Positions 20,313 to 41,661 of a stretch of DNA of 64,000 nt are shown here, one piece after another. Made by a program: the position numbers and the translations under genes. This stretch comes from Thermoplasmata archaeon (GTDB taxonomy: Archaea > Thermoplasmatota > Thermoplasmata > Halarchaeoplasmatales > Halarchaeoplasmataceae). The stretch is taken from NCBI GenBank assembly GCA_003554965.1, contig PWHR01000020.1, positions 70,202 to 134,201 on the forward strand, given 5' to 3'. Within the stretch, counting starts at the first letter, position 1; every line of letters starts with the position of its first letter. The notes below the pieces were generated by a model. That model saw only the letters and a program-made list of their open reading frames with translations. It had not been told where the DNA came from and did not search any database.

Positions 20313-21752
20313 TCAGTATCTCTTTTTACTATCTATCACTTCGCCCTCTTTAGAGACAAGATCCACTTTCAATGGCATCTGTCCCACTGCATGGGTGGAA
20401 CAGGAGAGGCATGGATCGTAGCACCTGACTACACTCTCAAGTCTGTTCAAAATGCCCTCTGGTATCTCCTCTTGGGAGCCGTCGATGTATTCTTCTGCTA
20501 CGCTCTGTATGCTCTTATTGATCCCCATATTGTTGTGCCCAGTAGCTACGATGAAGTTGGCATCTGTGATTATACCGTTTTCGTCCGACATGTATTCATG
20601 TATCAATGTTCCTCTAGGAGCTTCTATAACACCTCTACCTTTTGCTTTCCTAGCTTGAGTCGGTACATTTATCTCTCCAGTATAAACTTCTTCATCCTGG
20701 AGTAACTCTTCGATCTTCTCCACGGTGTGAAGTGTTTCTATCAGTCTCGCATAGTGGTAGAAAAGTGGACCCTCTTTTATCTCTTTACTCCCCATCTCTT
20801 TGTAACGCTTCCATTCTTCGTGAGCCAACTCAGTACTGATACCGTCGATCAGATTCAATCTCGCAAGTGGTCCCACTCTATAGACTCCTTCTTCGAATCC
20901 TTTATCCTTGTAGTACGGGAATTTCATATAGCTCCATTCTAAAGCCCTTTCTCCGATAACGTCATAGTACTTTTTAGGGTCTGTTTCTTCTAAAATTTCA
21001 CCATCAGAGTTCACCAAACGAAGATCACCGTCGTAAAATTCCAATTGTCCATCTTCATCGACCAGTCCCATGTAGGCAGTTTCATATGACGCAAACTCTT
21101 CCAATTGAGTGTCCATATCTTCGTATATTTCTTTCAAAAGCTCTATGGTTTCCTGCAGGTACGATTTCAAGTCATCTGTCTTCTCCAAGAACTCCTCGCC
21201 CTTTTCTCTGATCATGTTCTGATTAACGCCGCCTGCTACGGACAATTCAGGGTGAACTTTTTTGCCGCCTAAAGCTTCGATTATTCCTTGTCCAAAACTC
21301 CGAAGCTCTATACCTCTATCGACAAGCTCTTCATTTTCTCTGAGAAGTCCAAATATATTTCTCTCTTCCGGCGATTCATCAAACCCCATTACCAAGTCCG
21401 GACTTGAAAGGTAGAAAAAACTCAGACTATGTGATTGAAGTATCTGTCCCATGTGAAGGAGCTCCCTTATCTTATGTGCACTCTCAGGAACTTCTGCTCC
21501 TACCAGATCGTCGCATGCTTTTGAAGCGGCTAGTTCGTGACTTACTGGACATATCCCACATATCCTAGACGTCATCTCCGGCATCTCCCATAAAACCCTT
21601 CCCTGTACAAATTTTTCAAAAGCTCTGAATTCGGTCACGTGAAATCTAGCTTCTTCGACTTGTCTTTCATCGTCAAGATGTATGCTTATCTTACCATGGC
21701 CTTCTACCCTTGTTACGGGATTTATTTCTTTTATTTCTCCCATCTTATGCAC
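20313..21752 (-). CDS. hoxH: [NiFe]-hydrogenase large subunit (group 3d-like, HoxH)
   Basis: The N-terminal RICGICPVSH and C-terminal DPCLSCSTHAVG Ni-Fe ligand motifs were seen, at 479 aa. Confidence 0.9.
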   Translation of the reverse strand: MHKMGEIKEINPVTRVEGHGKISIHLDDERQVEEARFHVTEFRAFEKFVQGRVLWEMPEMTSRICGICPVSHELAASKACDDLVGAEVPESAHKIRELLHMGQILQSHSLSFFYLSSPDLVMGFDESPEERNIFGLLRENEELVDRGIELRSFGQGIIEALGGKKVHPELSVAGGVNQNMIREKGEEFLEKTDDLKSYLQETIELLKEIYEDMDTQLEEFASYETAYMGLVDEDGQLEFYDGDLRLVNSDGEILEETDPKKYYDVIGERALEWSYMKFPYYKDKGFEEGVYRVGPLARLNLIDGISTELAHEEWKRYKEMGSKEIKEGPLFYHYARLIETLHTVEKIEELLQDEEVYTGEINVPTQARKAKGRGVIEAPRGTLIHEYMSDENGIITDANFIVATGHNNMGINKSIQSVAEEYIDGSQEEIPEGILNRLESVVRCYDPCLSCSTHAVGQMPLKVDLVSKEGEVIDSKKRY

Positions 21753-21754
21753 CT

Positions 21755-22303
21755 CTAATATCTCAATTTATCTTTATCCAATTTCGGTATCTCTCCTTCA
21801 AGAAGCTTTTCCAGACCATAACGGATTATATCCGCGGATGGAGGACATCCAGGAATATATGCATCGACTTCTATCACTTCATCGAGTCCTCTAGCTTTCT
21901 CAGTTAGAGCAGGTACGTGCTCAGGATCAGGGATCTCACTTTCGTCATCACTTTTCCCTATGTAGCACTCTTCAAGTATATCCTCCACAGGTTCAAAATT
22001 TCTCATAGTCATGATCCCTCCAAAACAAGCACAGTCACCCCAGGCCACAAGTATCTCACAATTATCTCTCATCTCTTTGGCCACTTCGACGTTCTCCTCA
22101 TTAGTTATCGTTCCTTCTAATATTCCTATATCGACTTCTTCGATATCCTTGATATCCATTATCACGTGGCTAGACTGGAACTCGAGGAGTTCTGCAAGCT
22201 CCTTAACAAATTCGTCTACGTCCAAAAACGACATATGACAGCCCGAACATCCGCACATACAGGCCGTAGCTACCGTGGGTTTATCTTCTGCCATCTTTTT
22301 CAC
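21755..22303 (-). CDS. hoxY: [NiFe]-hydrogenase small subunit, proximal-cluster-only type (HoxY-like)
   Basis: 182 aa with ATACMCGCSGCH and a GDCACFGG proximal [4Fe-4S] pattern. There is no medial/distal cluster domain, as in HoxY. Confidence 0.85.
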   Translation of the reverse strand: MKKMAEDKPTVATACMCGCSGCHMSFLDVDEFVKELAELLEFQSSHVIMDIKDIEEVDIGILEGTITNEENVEVAKEMRDNCEILVAWGDCACFGGIMTMRNFEPVEDILEECYIGKSDDESEIPDPEHVPALTEKARGLDEVIEVDAYIPGCPPSADIIRYGLEKLLEGEIPKLDKDKLRY

Positions 22304-24156
22304 CTCTTTTCAGCTAATTCTTCAAAAAACTCTCTCTCCGACTTCAATTCTCCTTTAGGCTCCATAACCCGTTCGACTTCTTTTTCCTCTCCATTTATGT
22401 TGACTGAAGTGCCCTCTCTCTCAAACATAGTAAGAGATGGTATGACGAGATCAGCTTTTTCGGTTAATTCTGATCGTTTCGACGCCTGGACTATGGAAAA
22501 ATCAGCGTTCTCGATAAGTTTCTTCATATCCTCTTGATCATCTTCATCGCCTGCGAGGACATAAGCTACATCGGGCTCTTCGTAAACTCCTTCTGTTTCT
22601 AGACTCCTGATATACTGGTTGGAGGCCTGATTCAAGCTTATCAAGTAGCTACCTTCAAGCTTCGCTAATTCAAATATGTGTCTTATAGACCAACGATCGA
22701 TTATCTCACTACCCAAGATTATTATGTCATAGGTTGATTCTTCTAGATGTTTCACGACCTGCATCACATCTCTTGGATGCACCCTTAGACCACCTAGGAT
22801 CGAGGATACACGAGTAAGATCTTCTATAGATCCTTTACCCTCTCTGACGACTTGATTTATGAGCCTAGTTAACTGCGTCTTAGGAGATTCCACGCTTATA
22901 GAGATATCAGAATGTTCCCAGAACCTGTCTTCATAAGCATCTATGGTTATCAATCTGGTTCCGTTCATTGCTGCTCTTCTGATATACGAGGCTAGAACGG
23001 GATGTGTATCTCGTACAGAAGTATCGTAAAGAAGGATATGATCAGCTTTCATGACTTCTGTGATATCATCGATAAAGTGACCTTCGATCATATTTATCCT
23101 TCTTTTCACTTCTTTTTCGAATCTATGTCTTTTAGCTCCTACCACGTCAAATAAAGCTCCATGTGTTCTCATGGCTTCGGAAAACGAGTCGAGCACTTCA
23201 TTTGTGAGGTTTCCACTAGCCATAGCACTTATCTTGTCACCTTCATCGAGAACCTCTGCTGCCTTTTCGAGACCTTTTGCCAAACTCATCTCTTTCTCTG
23301 TCTCGTTCTCTTTATAGATCACATCATCGATTTTTTCAGTCCTGTCCACGAGAGGTTCAAATCTTCCCATCTCGCATAGCTGTCCTCCTGATTCCATTTC
23401 ACTTTCTGCCCCTTCGATCTCCACAAGATGTCCTGTACGGGTGTATATCTCAGTCTCGCATCCGACGCTGCATCTCAAGCAGGTAGATTCAGTGAGGTCA
23501 CATTCATCTTTGATGCCTTTGAACATACTGTGTTTGTTGAATATAGCTCCAGTGGGACATACTTGTAGGCACATACCACAAGAAACACAAGTAGATTCTT
23601 TCAAAGGTACATCGGCATCTGCAACTATCTCATTCTCGAGACCTCTACCACCAAATGCTAGAGTCTGATTTCCAACTACCTCTTCGCAGGCCCTAACACA
23701 CCTTCCACATCTGATACATCTGTTGTTGTCTATGACGATGTGCTCGTGGGAGGAATCTATAGGCCTATCTGGAAACAATCGAGGATGTTCAAAATAATCT
23801 ATCCCATTTTCCCACATCAGATCCTGTAATTCACAATCACCGTCAGATTCACAGAACATACAATAATGGTTTTCACTGCGGTATATAAGTTCAAGATTCA
23901 TCCTTCTGTATTTTTTGATCTCGTCCGTTTCAGTCTTTATCTCTAAATCTTCTTCCACTTTGAGTCCACAAGCTGGTTGTATTTGCTCTCCGTTCACTTC
24001 TACTATGCAAACCCGACAGGCCATAACGTTCTCCATTGCGTCGTGCTGGCAAAGTTTAGGTATATCTATACCGTGCTTTTTGCAAGCGGACATCACTGTT
24101 TCTCCCTTTTCAGCGGAGATCTTTTCTCCGTCTACAGTAAATTTTACGGTGCTCAT
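22300..24156 (-). CDS. hoxU: NuoG/HoxU-like FeS subunit (2Fe-2S + His-ligated 4Fe-4S + 2x4Fe-4S + degenerate molybdopterin-like domain)
   Basis: CRVCIVEV (2Fe-2S), HYCMFCESDGDC (His-4Fe4S), CIRCGRCVRAC, CVSCGMCLQVCP and CLRCSVGC were seen. 618 aa, a long form compared with ~240-aa cyanobacterial HoxU. Confidence 0.8.
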   Translation of the reverse strand: MSTVKFTVDGEKISAEKGETVMSACKKHGIDIPKLCQHDAMENVMACRVCIVEVNGEQIQPACGLKVEEDLEIKTETDEIKKYRRMNLELIYRSENHYCMFCESDGDCELQDLMWENGIDYFEHPRLFPDRPIDSSHEHIVIDNNRCIRCGRCVRACEEVVGNQTLAFGGRGLENEIVADADVPLKESTCVSCGMCLQVCPTGAIFNKHSMFKGIKDECDLTESTCLRCSVGCETEIYTRTGHLVEIEGAESEMESGGQLCEMGRFEPLVDRTEKIDDVIYKENETEKEMSLAKGLEKAAEVLDEGDKISAMASGNLTNEVLDSFSEAMRTHGALFDVVGAKRHRFEKEVKRRINMIEGHFIDDITEVMKADHILLYDTSVRDTHPVLASYIRRAAMNGTRLITIDAYEDRFWEHSDISISVESPKTQLTRLINQVVREGKGSIEDLTRVSSILGGLRVHPRDVMQVVKHLEESTYDIIILGSEIIDRWSIRHIFELAKLEGSYLISLNQASNQYIRSLETEGVYEEPDVAYVLAGDEDDQEDMKKLIENADFSIVQASKRSELTEKADLVIPSLTMFEREGTSVNINGEEKEVERVMEPKGELKSEREFFEELAEKR

Positions 24157-25952
24157 TCATTATCACCTTCCGATATAGCTTCGACAGGACAAACCTGAGC
24201 ACATTCACCACATGAGATACAGGTATCAGGATCGATGCTGTACGATTCATCTCCACTTGATATAGCGTCTACCGGACAGACTTCAGTACATTTTCCGCAC
24301 GTCACGCAAGCTTCCTCATCGATGTAGAAAGCCTCAACTAGTGCTTTACATGTGCCTGTTGGGCACTCTTTTTCGTTGACATGGGCCTCATATTCTTCCC
24401 TGAAAAATCTCAAAGTACTCAAAACTGGGTTTGGGCTTGCCTGGCCGAGTCCGCAGAAAGATGTATTCTGTACAGTTTCAGCTAGTTCTTCCAATGTCTC
24501 AAGATCCTCGGATTCTCCTTCACCTTTTGTTATCTTATCTAATATGTCCAACATCCTTTTGGTACCTAATCTACAGGGGGGACACTTACCACAGGATTCT
24601 TCCTGAGTGAAGTCTAAAAAGAACTTGGCGACATCGACCATGCATGTGTCTTCATCTAAAACTATGAATCCTCCCGAGCCCATTATAGTTCCAGCTTCCT
24701 CTAGTGAATCATAATCTATAGGTAGATCGATATGTTCTTCAGGTATAGTCCCACCAGCTGGTCCGCCTATCTGTACCGCCTTGAAATCCTTTCCACCGGC
24801 AACACCGCCAGCTATATCTATCATCTCTTCAATAGTGGTACCCATCTCAGCTTCAACAAGACCAGTGTTCCCAACATCTCCGGCTACTGCAAAAACCTTT
24901 GTTCCGGAACTTCCTTCAGTCCCGATATCATCGAACCACTCTGATCCTTTCTCTATAATAATAGGTATGTTCGCAAACGTTTCTACGTTGTTTATAACTG
25001 TAGGTTGATCCCAAAGACCAGATTGCGCGGGATATGGAGGCCTGTATTTTGGTCTTCCCTGTTTTCCCTCTATAGATGAAAGTAAAGCGGTCTCCTCACC
25101 ACAGACGAAAGCTCCTGCACCGACTCTCAACTCTACATTGAAATCAAATTGGGTGTTGAAAAGGTTCTCTCCTAGATAACCCTCGCTTTCGGCATCCCTA
25201 ATGGCTTTTTGTAGATTTCTGATAGCTAATGGATATTCAGCTCTAACATAGATATATCCCTTATTGGCTCCAACTGCGTAACCTGCGATCATCATCCCTT
25301 CGATGATACTATGTGGATCGCCTTCTAAAACACTCCTATCCATAAATGCTCCTGGATCTCCCTCATCTCCGTTACAAACAACATATTTTTCATCTTCGTC
25401 TTCACGGGCGGTAAATTCCCACTTGAGCCCAGTTGGGAATCCAGCACCACCTCTTCCCCGTAGGCCAGATTCTTTTATCTCTTCTATTATCTCCTCTCTT
25501 TCCATATCTGTTATAGCTTTCCTAGCTGCCATGTATCCATCATTTTCAAGATAGTCTTCAAGGCTGCTCGGATCTATATCTCCTGAATTCCTCATGACTA
25601 TCTTTTTTTGACCCTGTATGAAATCAAGTTTTTGAAACTCTTCGACTTTGTGACCATCATCCTCTATGAGTAAATTACGAACTACACGATCTTTCAACAA
25701 GTGTTCTTCAACAATTGTTTCAACATCGGATGGCTCTAGATTTCCATAAAAGGTGTCCTCAGGTCGAATGATTATCATAGGACCGAGATTGCAGGGTCCC
25801 ATACAGCCTGTCCTCTTTATCGCTCTAGTCACTGGATATTTATCCTCCAGTTCGTGTTTCCAGAGTTCGTCCATCAATTTATCTTCAATCTCCTCAGCCC
25901 CGGCTGATAAGCAACCTGTACCGGAACATATCAGGATTTCTCTTCTAGTCAT
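24153..25952 (-). CDS. hoxF: NuoF-like NAD(P)H-binding FMN/FeS subunit (HoxF / 51 kDa-like) with N-terminal Trx-like 2Fe-2S and C-terminal 2x[4Fe-4S]
   Basis: GAGFPTGLKWEF (FMN/NADH), ESCGKCPPCRLGT (N3 cluster), the N-terminal SGTGC...GCMGPC and the C-terminal CVTCGKCTEVCP/CISCGECAQVCP were seen. Confidence 0.9.
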   Translation of the reverse strand: MTRREILICSGTGCLSAGAEEIEDKLMDELWKHELEDKYPVTRAIKRTGCMGPCNLGPMIIIRPEDTFYGNLEPSDVETIVEEHLLKDRVVRNLLIEDDGHKVEEFQKLDFIQGQKKIVMRNSGDIDPSSLEDYLENDGYMAARKAITDMEREEIIEEIKESGLRGRGGAGFPTGLKWEFTAREDEDEKYVVCNGDEGDPGAFMDRSVLEGDPHSIIEGMMIAGYAVGANKGYIYVRAEYPLAIRNLQKAIRDAESEGYLGENLFNTQFDFNVELRVGAGAFVCGEETALLSSIEGKQGRPKYRPPYPAQSGLWDQPTVINNVETFANIPIIIEKGSEWFDDIGTEGSSGTKVFAVAGDVGNTGLVEAEMGTTIEEMIDIAGGVAGGKDFKAVQIGGPAGGTIPEEHIDLPIDYDSLEEAGTIMGSGGFIVLDEDTCMVDVAKFFLDFTQEESCGKCPPCRLGTKRMLDILDKITKGEGESEDLETLEELAETVQNTSFCGLGQASPNPVLSTLRFFREEYEAHVNEKECPTGTCKALVEAFYIDEEACVTCGKCTEVCPVDAISSGDESYSIDPDTCISCGECAQVCPVEAISEGDNE

Positions 25953-25979
25953 TTTATCTATCCTCTTTCTAAACTCTTT

Positions 25980-26438
25980 TTAATATCTATTTAAAATATC
26001 TTCTAGCTCTTCAGTCTGGACTTTACCATAAACATCATCACCGACCATCACTATCGGTGCTTTACTGCAGGCTCCAACACACCTTTTTGTGTTAAATGTG
26101 AATTTTCCGTCATCGGACGTGCCACCTTCTTCTACATTTAATCTGTCTTTCAGTTCTTCAGTTAGTTCGTCAGCTCCTTTCACATGACAAGCAGTTCCCG
26201 TACATACAGATATGGTGTAATCTCCCTTCGGTTCCATAGTAAAAAACGAGTAGAAAGTAACCACTGAATAAACTTGGCTGTATGGGATACCGAGTTCCTC
26301 GGCTATGAACTCCTGAACCTCTTTTGGAAGATAACCCAGTTTTTTCTGAACTTCGTGCAGTATGGGTATCAAACTTCCAGCTTTCTTTTCATATTCCTCT
26401 ATTATGGGCAACATATCCCGCAGATGGTATTTTTCCAT
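25980..26438 (-). CDS. hoxE: NuoE-like thioredoxin-fold [2Fe-2S] subunit (HoxE / 24 kDa-like)
   Basis: CTGTACHVKG...CVGACSKAP matches the NuoE Cys pattern, at 152 aa. Confidence 0.85.
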   Translation of the reverse strand: MEKYHLRDMLPIIEEYEKKAGSLIPILHEVQKKLGYLPKEVQEFIAEELGIPYSQVYSVVTFYSFFTMEPKGDYTISVCTGTACHVKGADELTEELKDRLNVEEGGTSDDGKFTFNTKRCVGACSKAPIVMVGDDVYGKVQTEELEDILNRY

Positions 26439-26766
26439 TATATCTATCCCCTTTTTATTTGCGAATGCGACCTATTCAAACTTTCCCTTTACTAGGCCTA
26501 AATCTTGGGTCAATTTTGCCTAGAAAGCGCCCATATTAAACACTTTCGCTCGCTTATTCATCCATATTTATTGTAAAAAAAGAAAATATAGATATGAGGT
26601 TGTTATTCTGGAAACTCTTATGACTTTTCGATCACAAGGTAGAAAAACACTCTATAATGAGCACAAATCTTTAATAGCAATCGATGTATTGGCGCATCCG
26701 TATTTAACGATATGAGTGAAATCATGGCAGTATTTGGAAAGGAATATAGAACCTGTTCAGGACTGT

Positions 26767-26785
26767 GGATATTGAAAGGATATCC
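26767..26785. promoter_or_regulatory. Candidate operator: GGATAT-N5-GGATATCC (direct repeat, second copy palindromic) ~45 bp upstream of the rightward hydrogenase operon
   Basis: Read directly from the sequence (ggatattgaaaggatatcc) within the 393-bp divergent intergenic region between the two hydrogenase operons. Confidence 0.25.
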
Positions 26786-26831
26786 GAATACCCAAGTTAC
26801 AGATATGTATACTAATAAGGAGGCATAAGCG

Positions 26832-28331
26832 ATGGATAAAAAACCGAAGGTGGCTTTTTTCGATTTCGCAGGATGTGAAGGAGACCAACTGCAAATAGCC
26901 AATTTAGAGGAAAAAATACTGGACCTGTTAGAACTGGTGGAGATAGTGAGTTTTAGGGAGGTCATGAAGGAGCATTCAGATGACTATGAAGTGGCTTTCA
27001 TCGAAGGTTCTATTCAGAGACCTAAAGACGAGGAGAGATTGAAAAAGATAAGATCGAACGCGGATATGTTGATAGCTCTTGGAGACTGTGCAAGCAACGG
27101 CTGTGTGAACAAACTCCAAAAAGATTGGTCTATAGATGAAGTTGAAGAAGAGGTCTATCCTGAAGCAGACGATGAGATAGAAGACAACGAACTCTTCTCT
27201 AATTTTTCAACAAAAGCCGTTGACGAAGTGGTTAATGTGGATTATTATCTGAGAGGTTGTCCTGTAAGAGGAGATCGTGTTCTCAACTTCGTTGAAAAAT
27301 TGGTGAAAAGACCAGTCGATACTAATAAAGATATAGATTTTGGAGTTATGCTGAGAGATAAAGAAGTTGATGAGCGGTCACTCGTCAACTACAATCCAAA
27401 TAAATGTATACTATGTCGACGGTGTGCTAATGTTTGTCAGGACGTCCTTGGAGTAGACGCATTAGGGCCGGTCGAAAGAGGTTGGGAGACGATCATATCA
27501 ACTCCTAAAGATATAGGATTTGACGCCAATGGATGTATTCAATGTGGACAATGTGTCGCGGTGTGTCCTGTAGATTCACTATATACAGATACGCCGGTAG
27601 AAGAGTTGTCTGAAAAGTTGAAAGAAGGAACCCAAGAGTTCGCCATAGCTCTGGACTCCATTGCGGTCGCCTCTTTTATCCAGGAGCATCCCATGCTGTC
27701 TGATATGGAACCAAAACAGGCAGAAAGATACTTTATCGCAAGTCTGAAAAAGATGGGATTCGGAAAAGTCGTTCAATACGAGCACTTTCTAGAGATGTCT
27801 AGAGAAGCAGATGAGGATAACGATGAGCCTGTATTAGCTAGTTGGTGTTTGCCTGCTAGAAATCATTTAGAAGCAGAGGAAATCGATTCTCTAAGTGTAA
27901 AAGACAAAAACGGACCTTGGAATAAGCTTTTAAAAGAAGTAAAAGGAGAGATCTGTTTGATGAGTCCATGCAGTGGTTTAAAAGCAGTTGAAGGGCTAGA
28001 TCATGTGATATCTGCTCCTGAGATGATAGATCTGTTCAACCACTTAGACATTCAAATTGGATTTGTTGAGCCAGCTTCGGGAGATTACGACGGAAAGCTT
28101 GCTTCTGATGATTTCAAGCATCCAGGAATTCCTGATGATAGAGAATATTTTAAGGTCACAGCTGATCTTGAAGATGAATTAGCTGAAGCGGACCTTGAAG
28201 ATGGGGGCGTAGACGTATTTCCCTGTCTGAATGGTTGTTTGAGTGGTGGAGGTAACCATCCAACAGCAGATGAATCCAAGATCAAGAAGAGGATAGAAAT
28301 AGCGATCGAATTGAGAGAGGTGAGATCATGA
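26832..28331 (+). CDS. Hybrid hydrogenase subunit: [NiFe] small-subunit (FrhG/MvhG-like) domain + 2x[4Fe-4S] ferredoxin domain + shortened [FeFe]-hydrogenase H-cluster-like domain
   Basis: The N-terminus FDFAGCEGDQ...GDCASNGC is a NuoB/small-subunit proximal-cluster pattern. CILCRRCANVC and CIQCGQCVAVCP are two 4Fe-4S motifs. The C-terminal 250 aa align by eye to the Clostridium-type HydA H-domain: IALDSIAVAS~VAMAPSVRAS, SLKKMGFGKV~ALRQLGFDKI, ASWCLPA~TSCCPGW (L1), MSPCSGLKAVE~MPCTSKKFEA (L2) and FPCLNGCLSGGGNHP~MACHGGCVNGGGQP (L3). SD aggagg is present. Confidence 0.75.
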   Translation: MDKKPKVAFFDFAGCEGDQLQIANLEEKILDLLELVEIVSFREVMKEHSDDYEVAFIEGSIQRPKDEERLKKIRSNADMLIALGDCASNGCVNKLQKDWSIDEVEEEVYPEADDEIEDNELFSNFSTKAVDEVVNVDYYLRGCPVRGDRVLNFVEKLVKRPVDTNKDIDFGVMLRDKEVDERSLVNYNPNKCILCRRCANVCQDVLGVDALGPVERGWETIISTPKDIGFDANGCIQCGQCVAVCPVDSLYTDTPVEELSEKLKEGTQEFAIALDSIAVASFIQEHPMLSDMEPKQAERYFIASLKKMGFGKVVQYEHFLEMSREADEDNDEPVLASWCLPARNHLEAEEIDSLSVKDKNGPWNKLLKEVKGEICLMSPCSGLKAVEGLDHVISAPEMIDLFNHLDIQIGFVEPASGDYDGKLASDDFKHPGIPDDREYFKVTADLEDELAEADLEDGGVDVFPCLNGCLSGGGNHPTADESKIKKRIEIAIELREVRS

Positions 28332-28819
28332 CTGAAACTCAAGACGAAAAAGAGGAGCTCTCTTGGAAAGAAAAAAAAGAACTTGAAAAGATCATAGATT
28401 CAGTCGAGGACCCCAAATACCAGAAAATCGAGCTGCTTCAAAAAACTCAGGAAAAATACAAGTGGCTGAAAGATGAGCATATGGGATATCTTGCCGAGTC
28501 TACTGGTGTCAGTTACACTGACCTTTACGGCATAGCTACTTTCTATACCCAATTTAAACTTCATCCGCCTGGACGTCATAAGATATCTGTTTGTATGGGT
28601 ACAGGATGTCACGTCAAAGGTGGTAGGGAAATACTTGAAAAATTAAAGGATATATTGGAGATAGACGTCAACGAAACAACAGAGGATAGAAGATTCTCAC
28701 TTGATCAGGTCAGGTGTTTGGGCTGTTGTGGTCTAGCCCCTGTTATTAACGTAGATGGTGAGACCTTTGGAAGAGTGAGTACAAAAGAAATAGAAGGTAT
28801 ATTAAAGGAGTTCAAGTAG
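28328..28819 (+). CDS. NuoE-like thioredoxin-fold [2Fe-2S] subunit
   Basis: CMGTGCHVKG...CLGCCGLAPV. It overlaps the upstream gene by 4 nt. Confidence 0.85.
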   Translation: MTETQDEKEELSWKEKKELEKIIDSVEDPKYQKIELLQKTQEKYKWLKDEHMGYLAESTGVSYTDLYGIATFYTQFKLHPPGRHKISVCMGTGCHVKGGREILEKLKDILEIDVNETTEDRRFSLDQVRCLGCCGLAPVINVDGETFGRVSTKEIEGILKEFK

Positions 28820-31800
28820 GTGAGAATGATGACTATAAAAACCTTAGAAGATTTAGATGAGATGGCGAATATAGGAATAGAAGATCTTGATCCAGATCAC
28901 CCACAGATAATCTTTGGATTCGCCACATGCGGTATAGCCGCTGGTGCTGAAGACGTGGTCGAGTTCACTAAAGAATATTTGGATGAAAAGGACATAAGAG
29001 CGGAACTCGGCGCAGTGGAAGAACCAGAGATCAAATCAGTAGGCTGTATCGGGATGTGTCATGCTGAACCATTGGTAGATGTAAAGATGCCCGACAAACC
29101 AAGGATAACATACTATGATGTAGATGAGACTAAGCTGAAGAGGATCATTGATGAACATGTTATAGGTGGTCGACCGGTCAAAGAATATGCTTTAGGTCAA
29201 TTGAGTGACGAACTATCGGAATGTGAGCACGGAAAGACGAAATTTACCTGGGAATTTGAGGAAATACCCTCCCTCAATGAGATACCTTTCCTATCAAAGC
29301 AGGTCAGAGTGGCTTTGAGAAACTGCGGTATCATCGATCCGGAATCGATAATGGAGTACACGGCTAGAGGGGGTTACAGGTCAGCCTTCAATGCATTGAA
29401 TAACATGAGTCCTCAAGAAGTGATAGAGGAAGTGAAAGAATCAGGACTGCGTGGTAGAGGAGGGGCCGGTTTTCCAACTGGTTTGAAATGGCAGTTCGCA
29501 AGAGACGCCGAAGGCGATCAAAAATATGTGATCTGCAACGCAGACGAAGGTGATCCTGGTGCTTATATGGATAGAGCAGTTTTAGAAGGAGATCCACACA
29601 GCCTCATAGAAGGCATGATCATAGGAGGTTATGCGATAGATGCCTCAGTCGGTTACATATACATCAGAGCCGAGTATCCTCTAGCCATTGAAAGGTTGAA
29701 AAAGGCCATAAAAGAGGCAGAGGAATACGGAATACTGGGCGAAGATATCTTAGGCAGTGATTTTTCCTTCGAACTAAAGATAATGGAAGGAGCAGGTGCT
29801 TTCGTATGTGGAGAAGAGACGGCATTGATGGGGTCTATAGAAGGTAACCGAGGTGAACCTAGACCTAGACCGCCTTTCCCGGCTAACTCCGGATTATTCG
29901 AAAAGCCGACCAACATCAATAATGTGGAAACCTGGGCGAACCTTCCGTTGATATTCGAAAAGGGCGCTGAGTGGTTCAACAGCATGGGGACCGAGAAAAG
30001 TAAAGGTACCAAAGTTTTCTCGCTTGTCGGCAATATCAAACGAGCTGGGCTGGTAGAGATCCCGATGGGTACGAAGATGAAAGATATAATATATGAGATA
30101 GGAGGAGGGATGCAGAACGAAAGAGATTTCAAAGCCGTCCAGACAGGTGGTCCTTCCGGTGGATGTATACCTCTTGAACATTTAGACGTGGAGGTAGATT
30201 ATGAGAACTTAGATGAACTTGGGTCAATCGTAGGTTCCGGTGGAATGGTGGCGATGGACGAAGATACGTGCATGGTCGATATCGCTCGATACTTCTTAGA
30301 ATTCTGCGTTGACGAGTCCTGCGGAAAGTGTACCCCCTGTAGAGTCGGTACTAGAAGGATGCTTGAAATCTTGGAAAGAATCGTTTTGGGCGAAGCAAAG
30401 ATGAAAGATTTAGAAACCCTAGAACATCTAGCTAAACAAGTCAGGGATGGATCACTTTGTGCCCTAGGAGGTACATCACCCAATCCCGTGCTTACCACAT
30501 TGAAGTACTTTAGAGATGAATACGAGCAGCATATAGAGCATAACAAATGTCCTGCTTCCTCATGTGCAGCTTTATTCCTTTCACCGTGTGAAGATACTTG
30601 TCCTGCCGGAACCGATGTGCCAGGTCAGATGCAACTTATCATCGAGGAGCGTTTCGGGGAAGCTTACGAATTTCAGAGGGAAGACAATCCATTCCCCGGT
30701 GTTTGTGGAAGAGTATGCGACCATCCTTGTGAGGACAGATGTCAGAGGAACCAATTGGATAGAGCAGTTTCTGTGATGTCTCAGCACAGGTTCTGCGCAG
30801 ATAAAGTGTATGAAGGAGAGATCGATTACAGACCTGAAACCTCAACTCTTGAAGATACAGGTAAACATGTTGGTATAGTCGGCGGAGGAGTCACAGGATT
30901 GACGACCGCTTACTTCTTAAAAAGATTGGGTCACGATGTTACGATATACGAAGCGAAGGACGAACTTGGAGGTATGCTGAGATGGGGCATACCAAAATAC
31001 AGGCTGCCTAGAGACGTGTTGGACTGGGAGATACAACAGATTTTGGATCTCAATGTGGATGTAGAGATGAACACATCAGTGGGCAAGGATATCCCGTTTG
31101 ATGATGTGCTTGATGATCATGACGCGGTGTTCCTTGGAGTAGGAGCTCAGAAAGATCGCGCATTGAATATGGAAAACGAAGATAAGCCAGGCATATTGAA
31201 AGGAATGGATATCCTTGAAAAGATGAACAGAGGTGAAGAAGTAGAGTTGGGAGACCGCATCCTGATAGTCGGTGGGGGTAACGTAGCCGTCGATATGGCT
31301 AGGACCGCTAAGAGGATGGGCTGCGAAGAGATAATAATAGCATACAGGAGAGAAGAGGTAGATATGCCGGCTTATCCCGAAGAAGTAGAAGAGGCAAAAA
31401 AAGAAGGTATAGAGTTCAATTTCCTTCTTTCTCCTGAAGAGATAATAGTTGAAGATGGAAAAGCTACCGGCATGGTTTTCACGAAAACTAAGATGGGTGA
31501 ATACACCAAATGGGGTCGTAGGAAACCAGTGCCTGTGGATTACGAGAAAGTCATCTTCAAAGCAGATAATATAATTACGGCGATAGGTCAGGAAATAGAC
31601 ATGAGTTTCGCTGAGGACTTGGCTGATAAGATCACAGATGAAAGGGGAAGAAGACTTAAAGTAAATCCCTATACGATGGAAACAGATCATCCTGATGTAT
31701 TTGCAGGAGGAGACGCCGTTTTAGGACCAGCCACCGTTATAGAGGCCGTAGGCCATGGTAAAAAAGCCGCTAAGGAAATAGACGCCCGATTGATGGGGGA

Positions 31801-32014
31801 AGACAGGTTGGAAGAACTTCAGAGCATAAATACTTATGAATATTCCATGGAACCACCAGATAACGAGCACTACATACCTAGAGCAGAATATCAATCCATC
31901 CCCGTAGAAGAAAGGAGTGGTAACTTCGAGGAAGTCATAGTATGTATGGACAGGGAGTGCGCGGTAAAAGAAGCAAAGCGTTGTCTTAGATGTGATATAT
32001 CAGAGGAGGAATGA
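28820..32014 (+). CDS. Fusion protein: NuoF-like NAD(H)/FMN/FeS module + GltD/NfnB-like FAD-dependent NADPH oxidoreductase module
   Basis: GAGFPTGLKWQF and ESCGKCTPCRVGT (NuoF core), an N-terminal Trx-like ATCG...GCIGMCH, then CEDTCPAGTD...CGRVCDHPCEDRC (GltD-type FeS), VGIVGGGVTGLTTAY (FAD) and IVGGGNVAVDMA (NADPH) folds were seen. 1064 aa. Confidence 0.85.
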   Translation: MRMMTIKTLEDLDEMANIGIEDLDPDHPQIIFGFATCGIAAGAEDVVEFTKEYLDEKDIRAELGAVEEPEIKSVGCIGMCHAEPLVDVKMPDKPRITYYDVDETKLKRIIDEHVIGGRPVKEYALGQLSDELSECEHGKTKFTWEFEEIPSLNEIPFLSKQVRVALRNCGIIDPESIMEYTARGGYRSAFNALNNMSPQEVIEEVKESGLRGRGGAGFPTGLKWQFARDAEGDQKYVICNADEGDPGAYMDRAVLEGDPHSLIEGMIIGGYAIDASVGYIYIRAEYPLAIERLKKAIKEAEEYGILGEDILGSDFSFELKIMEGAGAFVCGEETALMGSIEGNRGEPRPRPPFPANSGLFEKPTNINNVETWANLPLIFEKGAEWFNSMGTEKSKGTKVFSLVGNIKRAGLVEIPMGTKMKDIIYEIGGGMQNERDFKAVQTGGPSGGCIPLEHLDVEVDYENLDELGSIVGSGGMVAMDEDTCMVDIARYFLEFCVDESCGKCTPCRVGTRRMLEILERIVLGEAKMKDLETLEHLAKQVRDGSLCALGGTSPNPVLTTLKYFRDEYEQHIEHNKCPASSCAALFLSPCEDTCPAGTDVPGQMQLIIEERFGEAYEFQREDNPFPGVCGRVCDHPCEDRCQRNQLDRAVSVMSQHRFCADKVYEGEIDYRPETSTLEDTGKHVGIVGGGVTGLTTAYFLKRLGHDVTIYEAKDELGGMLRWGIPKYRLPRDVLDWEIQQILDLNVDVEMNTSVGKDIPFDDVLDDHDAVFLGVGAQKDRALNMENEDKPGILKGMDILEKMNRGEEVELGDRILIVGGGNVAVDMARTAKRMGCEEIIIAYRREEVDMPAYPEEVEEAKKEGIEFNFLLSPEEIIVEDGKATGMVFTKTKMGEYTKWGRRKPVPVDYEKVIFKADNIITAIGQEIDMSFAEDLADKITDERGRRLKVNPYTMETDHPDVFAGGDAVLGPATVIEAVGHGKKAAKEIDARLMGEDRLEELQSINTYEYSMEPPDNEHYIPRAEYQSIPVEERSGNFEEVIVCMDRECAVKEAKRCLRCDISEEE

Positions 32015-32020
32015 TAACCA

Positions 32021-32707
32021 ATGAATATAATAATCGACGGAAAAGAATACGGATTTGAGCCTGGGCAAAAAGTTTACGATGTGGCCGAGGAGAACGGTAT
32101 TGATATACCCACTCTATGCTTCAATGAGTTGAATCCAGACGAAAGACCCGCAGGATGCAGGATGTGTGTGGTAGAAATAATCGATGATGGAAACAACGAA
32201 CCAAATCTAGAGTCCAGTTGTACTTTACCTGCCTCTGATGGTTTAGAGATTTCAACGAAGAATAAAGTAGTATACGATGAAAGAAGAGAAGTTCTTGAGC
32301 TGTTACTATCTGAGCATGAACAGGATTGTCGTAATTGTGGGATAAGCGGCGACTGTCATTTTGCCGATCTTTCCTTAGAATACGATATAGACGGTGTTTC
32401 AGTATGTTCAGAATGTCCCAATCGTAAAGATGGATGTTTTCTGTCCCGAGATGTATTATGTTTAGGGGCGATAACTCATGCAGGTTGTGATGCTTTCTGT
32501 ACTCGCAACGGAGACCCTTGTGAGGGTTGTTTCAGTGTTCTTAGCAACGAAGACGTACTAGTATTTGGACTCGAAGCCTATGATGAGAATGGCTTCAGCA
32601 GAAAAGAAGTGTTGGAATCTGCTAAAGTCTTCTCTTATGAGGATGTTGAGGTACTCAAAAGACTGATGGAAGAAAATGACTTATTGAAAGAGGAGGTGTC
32701 TGAATGA
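32021..32707 (+). CDS. HoxU-like ferredoxin subunit (2Fe-2S + 4Fe-4S clusters)
   Basis: The 2Fe-2S-ferredoxin N-terminus (TLCF...GCRMCVVEI), HEQDCRNCGISGDC and CSECP...CDAFC...CEGC Cys clusters were seen. 228 aa. Confidence 0.7.
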   Translation: MNIIIDGKEYGFEPGQKVYDVAEENGIDIPTLCFNELNPDERPAGCRMCVVEIIDDGNNEPNLESSCTLPASDGLEISTKNKVVYDERREVLELLLSEHEQDCRNCGISGDCHFADLSLEYDIDGVSVCSECPNRKDGCFLSRDVLCLGAITHAGCDAFCTRNGDPCEGCFSVLSNEDVLVFGLEAYDENGFSRKEVLESAKVFSYEDVEVLKRLMEENDLLKEEVSE

Positions 32708-34014
32708 AAGATGTAGACGTCGAAGTAGAACACGTGACCAGAGTAGAAGGTCACGGTAATATAATAGTTGATGCGAAAAAAGGTGAACTAGAGGAAGTCC
32801 TTTGGGAGGTTTCAGAAGCACCAAGGTATTTTGAAGCATTCGTTAAAGAAAAACCATACGATCAATTGGCTCAGATAACATCTAGGATTTGCGGTATCTG
32901 TTCCATCGGCCATGCGTTGACCTCTCTCAAGGCTACTGAAGACGCTATGGGTATAGAGATCTCAAAGCAAGACAAGATGTTGAGAAAGTTAGCTCTTCAT
33001 GGAGAAAACATGCAGAGTCATGTTTTACACATAGGTTATCTAGCTCTTCCCGACTTAGTGGGAAAGGATTCGATAGTTCCTATGACCTCATCTCATCCCG
33101 AGGAACTTAAAACAGTCATCGGCATACACAGTCTTGCTAACGAGATGTCGCGGATCATGTGCGGAAGGACAACTCATCCAAGGCGGTTGATACCTGGTGG
33201 TTTTTCAAAACTGCCTTCTCCTCTGGAACTGGAAGATCTGATGCATAAGCTTGAGAGTTCAGTCACTGATCTGAAAGAGATAGCTTCCTTTGTAAAAGGA
33301 CTCTCTTCAGAACTTCCTGATTTCGAAAGAGAAACAGAGTTCATCTCGCTGACCCATGACGATGAATATCCTTTCTATGAAGGCAAAATAATATCTTCAG
33401 ATGGTGGGAAAACACCCGTTGAAGATTACCTCTCCGTAACAAATGAGTACGTAGTACCACAATCCACTGCCAAGTATACTAAAAATAATCGGGAATCCTA
33501 TATGGTAGGTGCCTTAGCAAGGCTGAACAATAACTATGACAAATTGAGTCCACTCGCAAAAGAGGTTGCAGAAGACTTTGGCCTTTCTCCCGTCTGCCAC
33601 AATCCTTACATGAACACTATAGCCCAGCTAGTCGAAGTCGTTCATAACGTAGAAGATTCAATTCGCATTATTAATGAATTACTCGATAGAGGCATAGATG
33701 AACAGGGATCAACTCACAAACCCGAAATAGAACCGAAGACTGGAAGAGGTATAGGTGCTGTAGAGGTACCAAGAGGCATACTGTTCCACGATTACACTTA
33801 CGATGAAGATGGCAGGTGTACTGATGCGAACTGTATAATACCTACAAATCAGAACCATGGTAATATACAGCACGATATGGAAGACTTGGTCCCGGAGATA
33901 ATAGGAGAAAGAACAGAGGATGAAATAGAATTGACGTTGGAAATGCTAGTACGTGCTTACGACCCGTGTATCTCCTGTTCAACGCACTACGTAGATGTTG
34001 ATTTCGTAGAATAG
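32704..34014 (+). CDS. [NiFe]-hydrogenase large subunit (short group-3-type)
   Basis: RICGICSIGH at the N-terminus and DPCISCSTHYVD at the C-terminus were seen. 436 aa. Confidence 0.9.
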   Translation: MKDVDVEVEHVTRVEGHGNIIVDAKKGELEEVLWEVSEAPRYFEAFVKEKPYDQLAQITSRICGICSIGHALTSLKATEDAMGIEISKQDKMLRKLALHGENMQSHVLHIGYLALPDLVGKDSIVPMTSSHPEELKTVIGIHSLANEMSRIMCGRTTHPRRLIPGGFSKLPSPLELEDLMHKLESSVTDLKEIASFVKGLSSELPDFERETEFISLTHDDEYPFYEGKIISSDGGKTPVEDYLSVTNEYVVPQSTAKYTKNNRESYMVGALARLNNNYDKLSPLAKEVAEDFGLSPVCHNPYMNTIAQLVEVVHNVEDSIRIINELLDRGIDEQGSTHKPEIEPKTGRGIGAVEVPRGILFHDYTYDEDGRCTDANCIIPTNQNHGNIQHDMEDLVPEIIGERTEDEIELTLEMLVRAYDPCISCSTHYVDVDFVE

Positions 34015-34052: not shown

Positions 34053-34652
34053 TCATTCTTCATCTTCTATTTTGGTAAGGATCTTTTCGAATCTTTCCTC
34101 TAACTCTTTATCTTTTCTCTTCTCAAGGAGATACATCAGGACTTCGAATCTGAGAAGTTGGGGAAAGCTTACCTCGCCGATCTTTTCTTCTTCATCAGAG
34201 ATAGGATCCATAACCCTTTCTTTGAGATCTATAAAGAACTTGGATAGTTCATCGATCAATTCCTCTTTCTCTTCTTCCTTTACTTTGTAGTTCATGATCT
34301 CCAGAAAGTCAACCATCTTTTCTGCATTCTTTTTTTCCCAATCTATCGTTATGTCCGTACGGACTCCGCTTTCCATTGAACTTGGATTGAGTAAAAAAAC
34401 CTTGGCCGTCCTCGAGTAAACTTTTTTCGGTATATGGTGGTCTTTTTGTTCTCCCACCATTTCCAAGTATCCTGCCTTTTCCAACTTTTTCACATGTCTA
34501 TAGATAGTGGAGTGGTCCTTGTCTAGAGTTTCAGACATCTGTGTAAGTGTCATATCATTTACTTTCAGTAGCGAGAGTATATCTCTCCTGGTATCCTCTA
34601 TAGCCAACTTGACATGTTCTGGATCACTCACTACTTTTACTTCCTTTTTCAT
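34053..34652 (-). CDS. ArsR-family HTH transcription regulator with extended acidic C-terminal domain
   Basis: An N-terminal wHTH (RRDILSLLKVNDMTLTQMSETLDKDHSTIYRHVKKLEKAGYL) is present. Confidence 0.6.
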   Translation of the reverse strand: MKKEVKVVSDPEHVKLAIEDTRRDILSLLKVNDMTLTQMSETLDKDHSTIYRHVKKLEKAGYLEMVGEQKDHHIPKKVYSRTAKVFLLNPSSMESGVRTDITIDWEKKNAEKMVDFLEIMNYKVKEEEKEELIDELSKFFIDLKERVMDPISDEEEKIGEVSFPQLLRFEVLMYLLEKRKDKELEERFEKILTKIEDEE

Positions 34653-35349: not shown

Positions 35350-36348
35350 ATGGTAGAAACACATCATCCGAGAAGAGGTTCAATGGGATATTCACCCCGA
35401 AAACGCGCTAAAAGCATCGTGCCCAATATCAGGTCTTGGCCGGAATGGGATGGGGAGCCAAAATTACAGGCCTTCCCTGGTTACAAGGCGGGTATGAGCC
35501 ACGCTTTCGTAGTAGATTACAGAGCTACAAGCACAACGTCAGGACAGGAAGTGAGGGTACCTATCACGATAGTTGAAGTCGCACCTATCAAAGTAGTAGG
35601 CTTACGATTCTACGAAGAAACACATGAAGGATTGAAAACGATGGGAGAAGTATGGACCAGTAAGGTCGACGAAACCCTTAGAAAGAGACTTCCCGTACCT
35701 GATAATTATAATACCGAGAGTATGTGGGATGGGATAGATAGAGAGTTAGTAGACGAAGTCAGAGCGATAATTCATACTCAACCGGATCTAGTTTCTGGCA
35801 TCCCGAAAAAGGTCCCTGAGATCATGGAAGTTAGGATCGGTGGAGGAACTATTCAGGAAAGGATCGATGCCGGAGAAAAAATGCTTGGTGAAGATATTGA
35901 ATACGAGGATTTCTGCGAAGCGGGCAGGATGGTAGATGTTTCAGCTATAACCAAAGGTAAGGGATTTCAAGGACATGTTAAAAGGTGGGGTGTGAAATTA
36001 CTTCAGCATAAAAATAGTAAATCTGTTAGGAATGTTGGAAACACTGGCCCCTTTAGACCAGGTTATACCAGACCCACGGTTCCTCAAGCTGGACAGCAAG
36101 GGTATCATCAAAGGACTGAATTGAATAAACGTGTGCTTAAAATCGGTGAAGACGGTGAGGAAGTCACACCCGATGGAGGCTTTATAAATTACGGAGATAT
36201 AAACAACTCATACGTGGTACTCCACGGTTCTATACCTGGACCAACTAAGAGGTTGACTGTGATGAGAGACGCCGTTAGAGACGAAAAATACGATGTGCAT
36301 GATCCGAACTTAACCTACATATCGACTGAATCTAACCAGGGGGTCTAA
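35350..36348 (+). CDS. rpl3: 50S ribosomal protein L3 (uL3)
   Basis: Archaeal uL3 N-terminus HHPRRGSMGYSPRKRA; its position heads the L3-L4-L23-L2 cluster. Confidence 0.95.
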   Translation: MVETHHPRRGSMGYSPRKRAKSIVPNIRSWPEWDGEPKLQAFPGYKAGMSHAFVVDYRATSTTSGQEVRVPITIVEVAPIKVVGLRFYEETHEGLKTMGEVWTSKVDETLRKRLPVPDNYNTESMWDGIDRELVDEVRAIIHTQPDLVSGIPKKVPEIMEVRIGGGTIQERIDAGEKMLGEDIEYEDFCEAGRMVDVSAITKGKGFQGHVKRWGVKLLQHKNSKSVRNVGNTGPFRPGYTRPTVPQAGQQGYHQRTELNKRVLKIGEDGEEVTPDGGFINYGDINNSYVVLHGSIPGPTKRLTVMRDAVRDEKYDVHDPNLTYISTESNQGV

Positions 36349-36351
36349 TAG

Positions 36352-37119: not shown

Positions 37120-37122
37120 TAA

Positions 37123-37392
37123 ATGACTAAATACGACTCAGCTCATAAAATAGTTTACCATCCGTACGTTACGGAGAAAACCATGATGGAAATGGAAGAA
37201 GAGAACAAGCTCGAATTCATATGCGCTATAAAAGCCAACAAACATCAGATTGCAGAGGCTGTAGAAGAACTATTCGATGTCGATGTAGAAAAGGTAAATA
37301 CAAGGATAGATGAAAAAGGGAAAAGAGCGGTGGTCAAATTCACGGATGAACATTCCGCAGAAGAGATAGGAATGAGGATAGGGGTGTTCTAA
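37123..37392 (+). CDS. rpl23: 50S ribosomal protein L23 (uL23)
   Basis: 89 aa; family similarity and position. Confidence 0.9.
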   Translation: MTKYDSAHKIVYHPYVTEKTMMEMEEENKLEFICAIKANKHQIAEAVEELFDVDVEKVNTRIDEKGKRAVVKFTDEHSAEEIGMRIGVF

Positions 37393-37393
37393 G

Positions 37394-38122: not shown

Positions 38123-38129
38123 TAGATTT

Positions 38130-38534: not shown

Positions 38535-38545
38535 GGTGATGAAGC

Positions 38546-38992: not shown

Positions 38993-38994
38993 CA

Positions 38995-39753: not shown

Positions 39754-39973
39754 AATGGCTTTGCTCAAAACTGAAGAGATAAGAGAGATGGATGAGTCAG
39801 AAAGAGAAGAAAAGTTAGAGGAACTTAGAGATGAGTTGCTCCACGAGACAGGTGTCGCTGCGATGGGGGGAGCTCCAGAAAGTCCGGGAAGAATAAGTAC
39901 GATCAAAAGGAATATAGCTAGGATTCTCACGATAATGAATGAAGAAAAAAATAAACAAAAAGGAGGAAATTGA
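39746..39973 (+). CDS. rpl29: 50S ribosomal protein L29 (uL29)
   Basis: 75 aa; family similarity and position. Confidence 0.85.
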
Positions 39974-40275: not shown

Positions 40276-40276
40276 C

Positions 40277-40540: not shown

Positions 40541-40547
40541 TGATATC

Positions 40548-41284: not shown

Positions 41285-41295
41285 GGTGTTCATAT

Positions 41296-41658: not shown

Positions 41659-41661
41659 ATC

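Follow-up and report, generated by a model that had tools for sequence, protein, structure and literature searches.

Hydrogenases that unite both types of metal site were described in archaea by Greening et al. (Cell 2024; PMC11216029). Their group F [FeFe] / group 3f [NiFe] hybrid hydrogenase consists of a HydA-HyhS fusion protein together with HydB, HydC, HydD and HyhL. Group F was reported from 21 genomes with Thermoplasmatota UBA147 as the exemplar, and the two seemingly redundant modules of the hybrid complex were presented as a puzzle (PMC11216029). In the same study, the group F enzyme Th1, which carries a Trp substitution, produced H2 after artificial maturation with [2Fe]adt, Th2 displayed low activity, and group E enzymes of about 286 amino acids (aa) with condensed loops were active. 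Here we examine a related gene in a 64,000-nucleotide stretch of the Thermoplasmata contig PWHR01000020.1, referred to below as the window. Its product is very probably the HyhS-HydA fusion subunit of a cytosolic hybrid hydrogenase of group F / group 3f, which has five subunits and is of the Bfu type (flavin-based electron bifurcation or confurcation). The [NiFe]-[FeFe] fusion itself is already published; the new part is the clade of short proteins to which this subunit belongs, in which the H-cluster domain (H-domain) is trimmed and remodelled. In the literature, we found no follow-up on group F/3f or on the short forms beyond the 2024 paper, whose supplementary sequence lists were not covered. 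Judged without these sequence tables, the protein is of a kind known since 2024 and the variant is probably undescribed.

The open reading frame (ORF) is intact, with an ATG start and 499 codons. Its product is strongly acidic (pI 4.4, Asp plus Glu 21%) and contains 17 Cys, 15 of which can be assigned to four iron-sulfur (Fe-S) sites. Coordinates of this and all other features are collected in Table 1. In the N-terminal HyhS domain, residues 15-156 match Pfam Oxidored_q6 (E 8e-23), MvhG in the PDB (5odc_E, E 2e-18), and the NCBIfam models for sulfhydrogenase delta and VhuG. The ligands of the proximal cluster are C15, D18, C86 and C143. The Asp at the second position (26883-26885) is also found in 10 of the 19 closest relatives; a CxxC occupies this site in most relatives, and positions 88 and 91 hold no clear compensating Cys. 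A proximal cluster with an Asp ligand occurs in the F420-reducing hydrogenase FrhG. The following F-domain bears two CxxCxxCxxxC motifs (C192-C202 and C235-C245), all eight Cys of which are invariant in 83 homologues. Model NF040763 spans residues 181-315 (E 5e-28), taking in the F-domain and the first ~65 residues of the H-domain in a single alignment. Similarly, residues 120-273 of T. kivui HydA1 (8a6t_A) align to residues 166-322, contiguously over the F-domain and the start of the H-domain, and there is an individually weak direct phmmer stretch over the L3 motif (455-489 against 486-520 of 8a6t_A).

The architecture agrees with much of a first-pass annotation made from the sequence alone. 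This had proposed a [NiFe] small subunit, recognizable by a proximal-cluster pattern and an Oxidored_q6 domain, fused to an [FeFe] H-cluster-like domain; domain architecture, profile matches and Foldseek matches all bear out the fusion. The large subunit proposed as its partner is indeed HyhL, encoded in the same cluster with its Ni motifs intact. The suspected membership in, or variation on, the recently reported archaeal hybrids is borne out by the architecture, the five-gene cluster and direct comparison with UBA147. The two ferredoxin motifs are also present, but their nearest counterpart is the F-domain of HydA (8a6t_A) and not FrhG/MvhG, as had been assumed.

Concerning the partner subunits, the start codon of hydC overlaps the stop codon of the fusion gene (ATGA), and the reading frames of the four genes from hydC to hyhL (28328-34014) overlap or abut. 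The closest PDB entries to HydB are NfnB (9n5u_B, E 2e-206) and A. mobile HydB (7t2r_B, E 5e-206), and residues 587-1060 are closest to NfnA (9n5u_A, E 4e-111). In comparison with NfnABC (9N5U/9N5V), residues 30-586 of HydB are nearest to NfnB and residues 587-1060 to the GltD-like part of NfnA, so that the flavin/Fe-S bifurcating core of the complex is, as judged from sequence, probably of the Nfn-Bfu type. Nfn, however, has no hydrogenase module, and in the window the NfnB-like and NfnA-like parts are fused in one chain of 1064 aa. HydD is chimeric. Its residues 3-126 correspond to the N-terminus of NuoG/HydA, with a [2Fe-2S] and a His-ligated [4Fe-4S] cluster (7t2r_A, E 1e-21), and its residues 122-214 to the ferredoxin part of group-3b small subunits, the C-terminal half with the medial and distal clusters (SHI delta, 9nez_A 158-251, E 4e-9). 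The fusion has the N-terminal proximal half alone and does not combine all three clusters (proximal, medial and distal) of a small subunit in one chain. Read from the sequences, the fusion gene and hydD each encode one part of the [NiFe] small subunit, as though the N-terminal halves of HydA and HyhS had been exchanged. HyhL retains both Ni-binding motifs (RICGICSIGH and DPCISCSTH), the latter followed by an 8-residue tail, and its closest PDB entry is SHI alpha (9nez_D, E 4e-62).

The order fusion, HydC, HydB with its GltD part, HydD and HyhL is conserved in 13 loci. These include UBA147 (Methanomassiliicoccales/Thermoplasmatota), recovered by the genome scan as locus L013. The fusion architecture, the contiguous hydC, hydB, hydD and hyhL genes and the Cys ligands are those of group F/3f, with Asp18 as the fourth proximal ligand. 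With the UBA147 hybrid, the window shares the domain order (HyhS N-terminal half, two [4Fe-4S] clusters, H-domain), the five genes in the same order and the GltD-like module in HydB. Towards the long-form loci including UBA147, identities of the partner subunits are 46-48% for HydC, 59-64% for HydB, about 54% for HydD and 60-62% for HyhL. The closest genome locus, L011, from a soda-lake Thermoplasmata metagenome-assembled genome (MAG), has a fusion protein 73% identical and partner subunits 78-91% identical. The Acetomicrobium mobile enzyme HydABCSL (7T2R/7T30) likewise combines a Bfu-type NuoE/NuoF/NuoG-like module with a group-3 [NiFe] dimer, but it has a separate small subunit of 179 aa and a HydA with a relic molybdopterin-type domain, and lacks both an H-domain and a GltD module. 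The host of the window is a halophilic soda-lake Thermoplasmata-like archaeon. A protein identical to the window fusion protein is encoded on a soda-lake sediment contig (P0001), and a Kulunda-type metagenome of soda-lake sediment (JGI 3300000557) holds a contig that matches the window.

The C-terminal domain is a trimmed H-domain

The last 250 residues had been predicted to match Pfam Fe_hyd_lg_C (PF02906). This prediction failed, as the match is below threshold (E 0.054, 13.6 bits, cut-off 22.1); taken literally, this is the outcome that the first-pass annotation had named as contradicting its own proposal. A home-made hidden Markov model (HMM) of canonical H-domains gave 14.4 bits with the window protein, and pairwise identity to HydA structures is merely 16-23%. 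The non-significant match and the low identity are what can be said for a chance collinearity of Cys residues on an unrelated Fe-S domain, an explanation to which we attach a negligible probability. When a profile of 56 short-form C-terminal domains was compared with canonical H-domains by hhalign, with the ferredoxin region excluded, a probability of 98.5% and an E value of 2e-15 were obtained over 196 columns. Homology is also graded through the longer, PF02906-positive members of the family, with E 7.5e-38 between short and long forms and E 8e-27 between long forms and canonical H-domains. An AlphaFold model based on the 83 homologues reached a pLDDT of 89.9, with values above 90 over residues 250-490. 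In a Foldseek comparison of this model with the PDB, the best 50 matches listed were solely [FeFe] hydrogenases (E 6e-17 to 1e-13; TmHydA, E 5.6e-17; CpI, E about 1e-13), and 229 of the 244 residues superposed on CrHydA1 at 2.8 Å. The structure prediction that had been proposed for this protein thus gave a confident model and an [FeFe]-hydrogenase fold. Profile-profile comparison, Foldseek and the CrHydA1 superposition refute an unrelated Fe-S domain with chance Cys motifs. Because the profile-profile and structural tests are decisive, the sub-threshold PF02906 match was not taken as a refutation; these tests and the invariant motif Cys indicate that the homology is real. The C-terminal domain is a genuine H-domain, trimmed and remodelled.

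Residues were mapped onto a CpI reference sequence, 100% identical to 1FEH over 574 residues, that was aligned with the family. In the L1 equivalent, the proton-relay residue C299 of CpI corresponds to W338, the cubane ligand C300 to C339, and P301 to L340. In the L2 equivalent, M353 corresponds to S378, C355 to C380 and K358 to L383; K384 lies at the position of K359, and E361 has no equivalent. In the L3 equivalent, M497 corresponds to F463, C499 to C465, the bridging Cys C503 to C469 and Q509 to N475, and the GGG turn is kept. C380, C465 and C469 are invariant in 83 of 83 sequences, and C339 and W338 in 81 of 81 typical fused proteins. The canonical HydA signatures (TSCCPxW in L1, MPCxxKxxE in L2 and ExMxCxxGCxxGGGQP in L3) are therefore not found as such, and the Cys/Pro/Gly skeleton alone is kept.

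The collinearity of L1, L2 and L3 (ASWCLPA, SPCSGLKAVE and FPCLNGCLSGGGNHP) noticed in the first-pass annotation was recovered at the same places by the CpI mapping, and the retention of all four H-cluster Cys (C339, C380, C465 and C469) was confirmed both by the mapping and by conservation in homologues. The annotation had itself suggested that poor conservation of these Cys in other genomes would point to chance; they proved invariant, so chance is not the explanation. Its Trp for the relay Cys (W338) and its shifted Lys (K384) also stand. The shifted Glu does not, as E387 is found in 12 of 19 proteins of the closest clade and is absent from long forms, which leaves the Lys shift as the sole meaningful one in L2. 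As peculiarities of the window gene, the Trp and the shifted Lys had to be dismissed: both are carried by all long forms including UBA147 and are thus traits of the family. The motifs of the UBA147 fusion read FASWCPSAS in L1, ISPCIVHKGN in L2 and YPCLGGCLTGGGQ in L3. The window protein and UBA147/group F share the Trp-Cys of L1, the Lys one position later in L2, Ser/Thr for M353, and Tyr/Phe-Pro for M497-A498. As a separate observation on L1, among P0103-P0119 and A. woodii HydA1 (7q4v_A), 13 of 16 group-A-type HydA read TSCSPGW, with Ser in place of the CpI cubane ligand C300 and a single Cys where CpI has C299.

The residues lining the [2Fe] pocket and the proton path of canonical enzymes are not retained as a set. 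In the pocket, P231 is replaced by S276, S232 by I277 and Q325 by W363. On the proton path, E279 is replaced by D327, S319 by K357 and E282 by N330, and R286 falls in a gap. The CpI residues F417-G422 are deleted, and V423 is aligned to A424 in a solely nominal manner at the edge of the gap. Losses of C299, M353, K358, E361, M497, S319, E282 and R286 are family-wide, and P362 and K384 are conserved in short H-domains. Compared with the canonical H-domains of CpI and CrHydA1, the window domain thus shares the four cubane and bridging Cys, P324, the GGG turn and a Lys next to L2, but has no relay Cys, no F417-V423 roof and no C-terminal small-subunit-like extension, and is ~120 aa shorter than that of CpI. 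As all four cubane Cys are kept, the domain almost certainly binds the [4Fe-4S]H cubane.

Short and long forms of the fusion protein

In this family, we found 56 sequence clusters of short forms and 25 of long forms. Long forms have 554-593 aa (mostly ~570-590), are detectable with PF02906 and belong to the length class of the UBA147 fusion. Short forms have ~460-530 aa and are mostly PF02906-negative; their sources are soda-lake Thermoplasmata and MAGs that bear the labels Hadarchaeota and Bathyarchaeota. As a short form, the window protein is ~75 aa shorter than UBA147 and the other long forms and lacks the equivalent of CpI ~411-462. In CpI, this segment comprises the F417 loop, a helix (419-432) that carries V423, and a beta-hairpin, and it roofs the [2Fe] subsite with F417, G418 and V423.

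Further differences separate the two forms. At CpI P231, the Pro of long forms is Ser in short forms; at P301, an invariant Pro is replaced by Leu, Lys or Arg; at Q325, Glu, Ala, Ser or Val gives way to an invariant Trp; at Q509, Gln to Asn, Thr or Cys; and at E279, Gln to Asp. The window protein has Ser, Leu, Trp, Asn and Asp at these positions, respectively, and in addition the clade-specific His430 (28119-28121), which is present in 53 of 56 short forms within the stretch that replaces the F417 loop. Tyr316 is invariant in the short clade. Cys375 (27954-27956), five residues before the L2 Cys, occurs in 47 of 56 short forms, with Val or Ile in the long forms. In a second short subclade, shortB, the bridging Cys is preceded by Arg in place of the Gly that the window's subclade retains. 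Between short and long forms, identity averages 0.64 in the HyhS domain, 0.50 in the F-domain and 0.24 in the H-domain, and identity of H-domains within each clade is 0.44-0.53. The low value for the H-domain between the clades, set against those for the rest of the protein, suggests a functional shift: a burst of change at the split of short and long forms, followed by constraint, as the alignments indicate.

With the canonical H-domain HMM, the median score of long forms is 62 bits, and short forms score 3-24 bits. The published screen for group F used its own HMM with a cut-off of 15.9 bits and a CxxxC filter (PMC11216029). The scores place the short forms at the edge of detectability. A phmmer search with the H-domain alone against 1.84 billion representatives returned 14 matches, all of them fusions of this architecture or pieces of such proteins, and no stand-alone version.

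In a crude neighbour-joining (NJ) tree of the N-terminal 260 aa, the fused proteins are monophyletic relative to small subunits that are not fused. Short and long forms essentially make up two sister clades, and the window protein lies in the short one; UBA147 was not included in this tree. A clean division is contradicted by three proteins of short length: P0053 and P0054, which group with the long-form P0081, and P0082, which is separate and basal. We tentatively propose, while rating it slightly below an even chance, that the short HyhS-HydA proteins of ~500 aa are a large unrecognised sister lineage of group F whose H-domain has been rebuilt around the cubane, with the roof deleted and Y316, D327, W338, W363 and H430 conserved. 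If so, the short form may represent, at 244 aa, the smallest H-cluster domain yet known in nature, with a proton relay that does not use Cys, or may be the first H-domain of a prokaryote to have been co-opted, within a [NiFe] bifurcating complex, as a site for [4Fe-4S] only or for another cofactor.

Several unusual members were also noted. P0093 and P0094 (463-471 aa) form a further reduced fused lineage that shares the central deletion and has a canonical-looking L3 (CPHGCIGGGGQP). Their L1 reads VPASIAE, with neither Cys nor Trp, so that at least one relative is without one cubane ligand. P0030 (859 aa), a single JGI metagenome sequence, has receiver and histidine-kinase ATPase domains in frame at the N-terminus of a short form; it may be a sensory fusion or an artefact of gene calling or a frameshift. 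As for the hosts, complete short-form clusters at L004-L008 and L010 lie on contigs of MAGs with bacterial labels (Balneolales/Balneolaceae, Gemmatimonadales), L001 and L002 are labelled Hadarchaeota, and the flanks of L010 include DUF996 and DUF973. For L004-L008 and L010, either the contigs are mis-binned or the family extends beyond archaea.

The [2Fe] subsite and the proposed working of the complex

As the sequences show, the HyhS domain provides the proximal cluster for HyhL and the HydA-type F-domain two [4Fe-4S] clusters, and HydD contributes the other half of the small subunit together with NuoG-type clusters. HydC and HydB form a NuoE/NuoF module with flavin mononucleotide (FMN) acting on NAD(H), joined to a GltD/NfnA-like module with flavin adenine dinucleotide (FAD). 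In the complex that we envisage, H2 would be split or made at the Ni-Fe site of HyhL, with electrons passing via the proximal, HydD and F-domain clusters to the flavins of HydB. There, NAD(P)(H) and a low-potential carrier would be coupled by bifurcation or confurcation, as modelled for UBA147, in a presumably reversible process.

What the H-domain would add depends on whether it holds a [2Fe] subcluster. On balance, we lean towards the reading that the H-domain of the short clade has no canonical [2Fe] subcluster and acts as an auxiliary site where electrons enter, leave or are stored, or serves for docking, with [NiFe] as the working H2 catalyst. We lean this way because the short H-domain has lost the roof segment together with most second-sphere residues and has diverged far from its long-form counterpart. 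P231, P301, Q325 and Q509 are lost on top of the family-wide losses; the drop in HMM score, the missing L1 Cys of P0093/P0094 and the lack of hydE/F/G among the scanned ORFs of the window point in the same direction. Such a role would resemble, in concept alone, that of Nar1/NARF (IOP1)-type proteins, which are HydA-like and keep the cubane Cys without a [2Fe] subcluster. Nar1 proteins are eukaryotic stand-alone factors of cytosolic iron-sulfur cluster assembly with an extra N-terminal cluster, whereas the window domain, possibly kept as a [4Fe-4S] carrier, is fused to a [NiFe] small-subunit domain and encoded in a hydrogenase operon.

Several observations weigh against a loss of the [2Fe] subcluster. 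Pocket-lining positions are invariant and polar or aromatic in the short clade, namely Y316 (I268 in CpI), D327 (E279), W338 (C299), W363 (Q325), K384 and H430, a pattern that fits an active or ligand-binding site better than it fits a relic that has been filled in. The window's subclade retains the bridging Cys together with the CxxGC spacing and the GGG turn. Condensed-loop enzymes of group E (~286 aa) are active, and so is a Trp-bearing group F enzyme after artificial maturation (PMC11216029). The absence of maturases is uninformative, as most archaea with active [FeFe] hydrogenases have none. The same facts, with the conserved P362 and K384 and the fold retained on CrHydA1, favour a competing reading that we consider less probable but take seriously: the short H-domain would be a fully functional, very small [FeFe] domain of 244 aa with a complete H-cluster, and the complex would have two functional H2 sites, as has been suggested for group F. 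In this case, a new proton relay built from short-clade residues such as D327, H430 and Y316 would have replaced C299, E279 and S319. The ultraminimal group E and Th1, with its Trp at the relay position, are precedents for such a domain. It would have to work, however, without the F417/V423 roof, with P231, P301, Q325, M353, M497 and K358 replaced, and with an H-domain merely 24% identical to that of long forms; in addition, Th2 had low activity, and the scanned ORFs of the window include no maturases.

It appears improbable that the H-domain is instead an H2- or redox-sensing regulatory module like HydS of groups C and D, tuning electron flow or bifurcation. A degenerate proton pathway is also seen in HydS-type sensory enzymes, P0030 carries signalling domains, and a sensory role would bear on the published puzzle of two redundant-looking modules. 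P0030 is nevertheless one metagenomic gene call, neither the window protein nor any of the other 80 homologues has a PAS or signalling domain, the sole regulator gene next to the cluster, of the ArsR type, lies on the other strand, and sensing would still require the [2Fe] site, which is doubtful here. The roles that the first-pass annotation had listed, a minimal catalytic site, a Nar1-like electron-transfer module or a sensor, are still the right set of candidates.

Concerning maturation, no hydE/F/G, hyp or hycI was found among the 47 window ORFs scanned, with the ribosomal block (~35350-50900) sampled at the genes for ribosomal proteins L3 and L4 only. The only radical-SAM gene, at 18464-19459 near the hydrogenase operons, was considered as HydE or HydG and rejected; it encodes an enzyme of the AmmeMemoRadiSam system (TIGR04337, E 5e-99). 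In L004, a sister short-form locus, genes for a HycI-type maturation protease, HypA and a HypB/CobW-type GTPase lie directly 3' of hyhL (8114-10204), and the maturation genes there are of the [NiFe] type only.

Surrounding genes and significance

The fusion gene is preceded by a divergent, AT-rich intergenic region of 393 bp (26439-26831) that contains its AAGGAGG sequence. A 69-aa JGI gene call just 5' of the fusion gene was dismissed, as the window has no intact ORF there. From the same intergenic region, a second hydrogenase operon (20313-26438) is transcribed in the opposite direction and encodes an A. mobile-type bifurcating [NiFe] HydABCSL, a true orthologue of the A. mobile enzyme. The back-to-back pair of hybrid cluster and HydABCSL operon is likewise present in L011. 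On the 3' side of hyhL, a gene for an ArsR-family regulator on the opposite strand (34053-34652) is followed by a ribosomal-protein operon from 35350.

Table 1. Features of the hybrid hydrogenase locus and the divergent operon in the window
Feature	Coordinates	Strand	Size or residues	Description and basis
Shine-Dalgarno AAGGAGG	26817..26823	+		8 nt 5' of the fusion-gene ATG; direct sequence reading
hyhS-hydA fusion gene	26832..28331	+	499 aa	First gene of a tightly packed cluster
HyhS domain	26832..27311	+	1-160	N-terminal half of group-3 [NiFe] small subunit
F-domain, 2x[4Fe-4S]	27384..27596	+	185-255	Fer4 families; C192/195/198/202 and C235/238/241/245
Trimmed H-cluster-type domain	27597..28328	+	256-499 (244 aa)	
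L1 equivalent ASWCLPA	27837..27857	+	336-342	CpI mapping
L2 equivalent SPCSGLKAVE	27963..27992	+	378-387	CpI mapping
Deletion junction	28080..28145	+		~50-70 residues of long forms/CpI ~411-462 gone; motif xxH430-P-G; alignments
L3 equivalent FPCLNGCLSGGGNHP	28218..28262	+	463-477	CpI mapping
hydC	28328..28819	+		NuoE/HoxE-like thioredoxin-fold [2Fe-2S] subunit; PF01257 (E 7e-47), NuoE/HoxE NCBIfam models
hydB	28820..32014	+	1064 aa	Bfu-type NuoF-like FMN/NADH module (~30-586) and GltD/NfnA-like FAD + 2[4Fe-4S] module (587-1060); Pfam, NCBIfam
hydD	32021..32707	+	228 aa	Chimeric; Pfam Fer2_4, NADH-G_4Fe-4S_3; sulfhyd_HydD at 121-210
hyhL	32704..34014	+	436 aa	Group-3 [NiFe] large subunit; PF00374; ShyA/HydA sulfhydrogenase models
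NuoE-like subunit	25980-26438	-		HydABCSL operon
NuoF-like subunit	24153-25952	-		HydABCSL operon
NuoG-like subunit	22300-24156	-		HydABCSL operon; relic molybdopterin domain; 4e-81 to 7t2r_A
Small subunit	21755-22303	-		HydABCSL operon
Large subunit	20313-21752	-		HydABCSL operon; 9e-169 to 7t2r_D

Hybrid [FeFe]/[NiFe] hydrogenases came as a surprise in 2024, and the physiological logic of their two apparently redundant H2 sites remains a puzzle. The window points to a second, numerous branch of this family, one that profile-based surveys are likely to under-count, as standard [FeFe] profiles barely detect it. With its cubane ligands kept, its [2Fe] roof lost and its partner subunits conserved, the H-domain of this branch amounts to a natural deletion experiment. 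It bears on which parts of the domain the [2Fe] subcluster requires for its binding and use, and on whether one of the "redundant" catalytic modules is being retired or repurposed. Either outcome, the smallest natural H-cluster domain or an exapted one, would, if true, inform both the entanglement of [FeFe] and [NiFe] hydrogenases and the minimal scaffold of the H-cluster.

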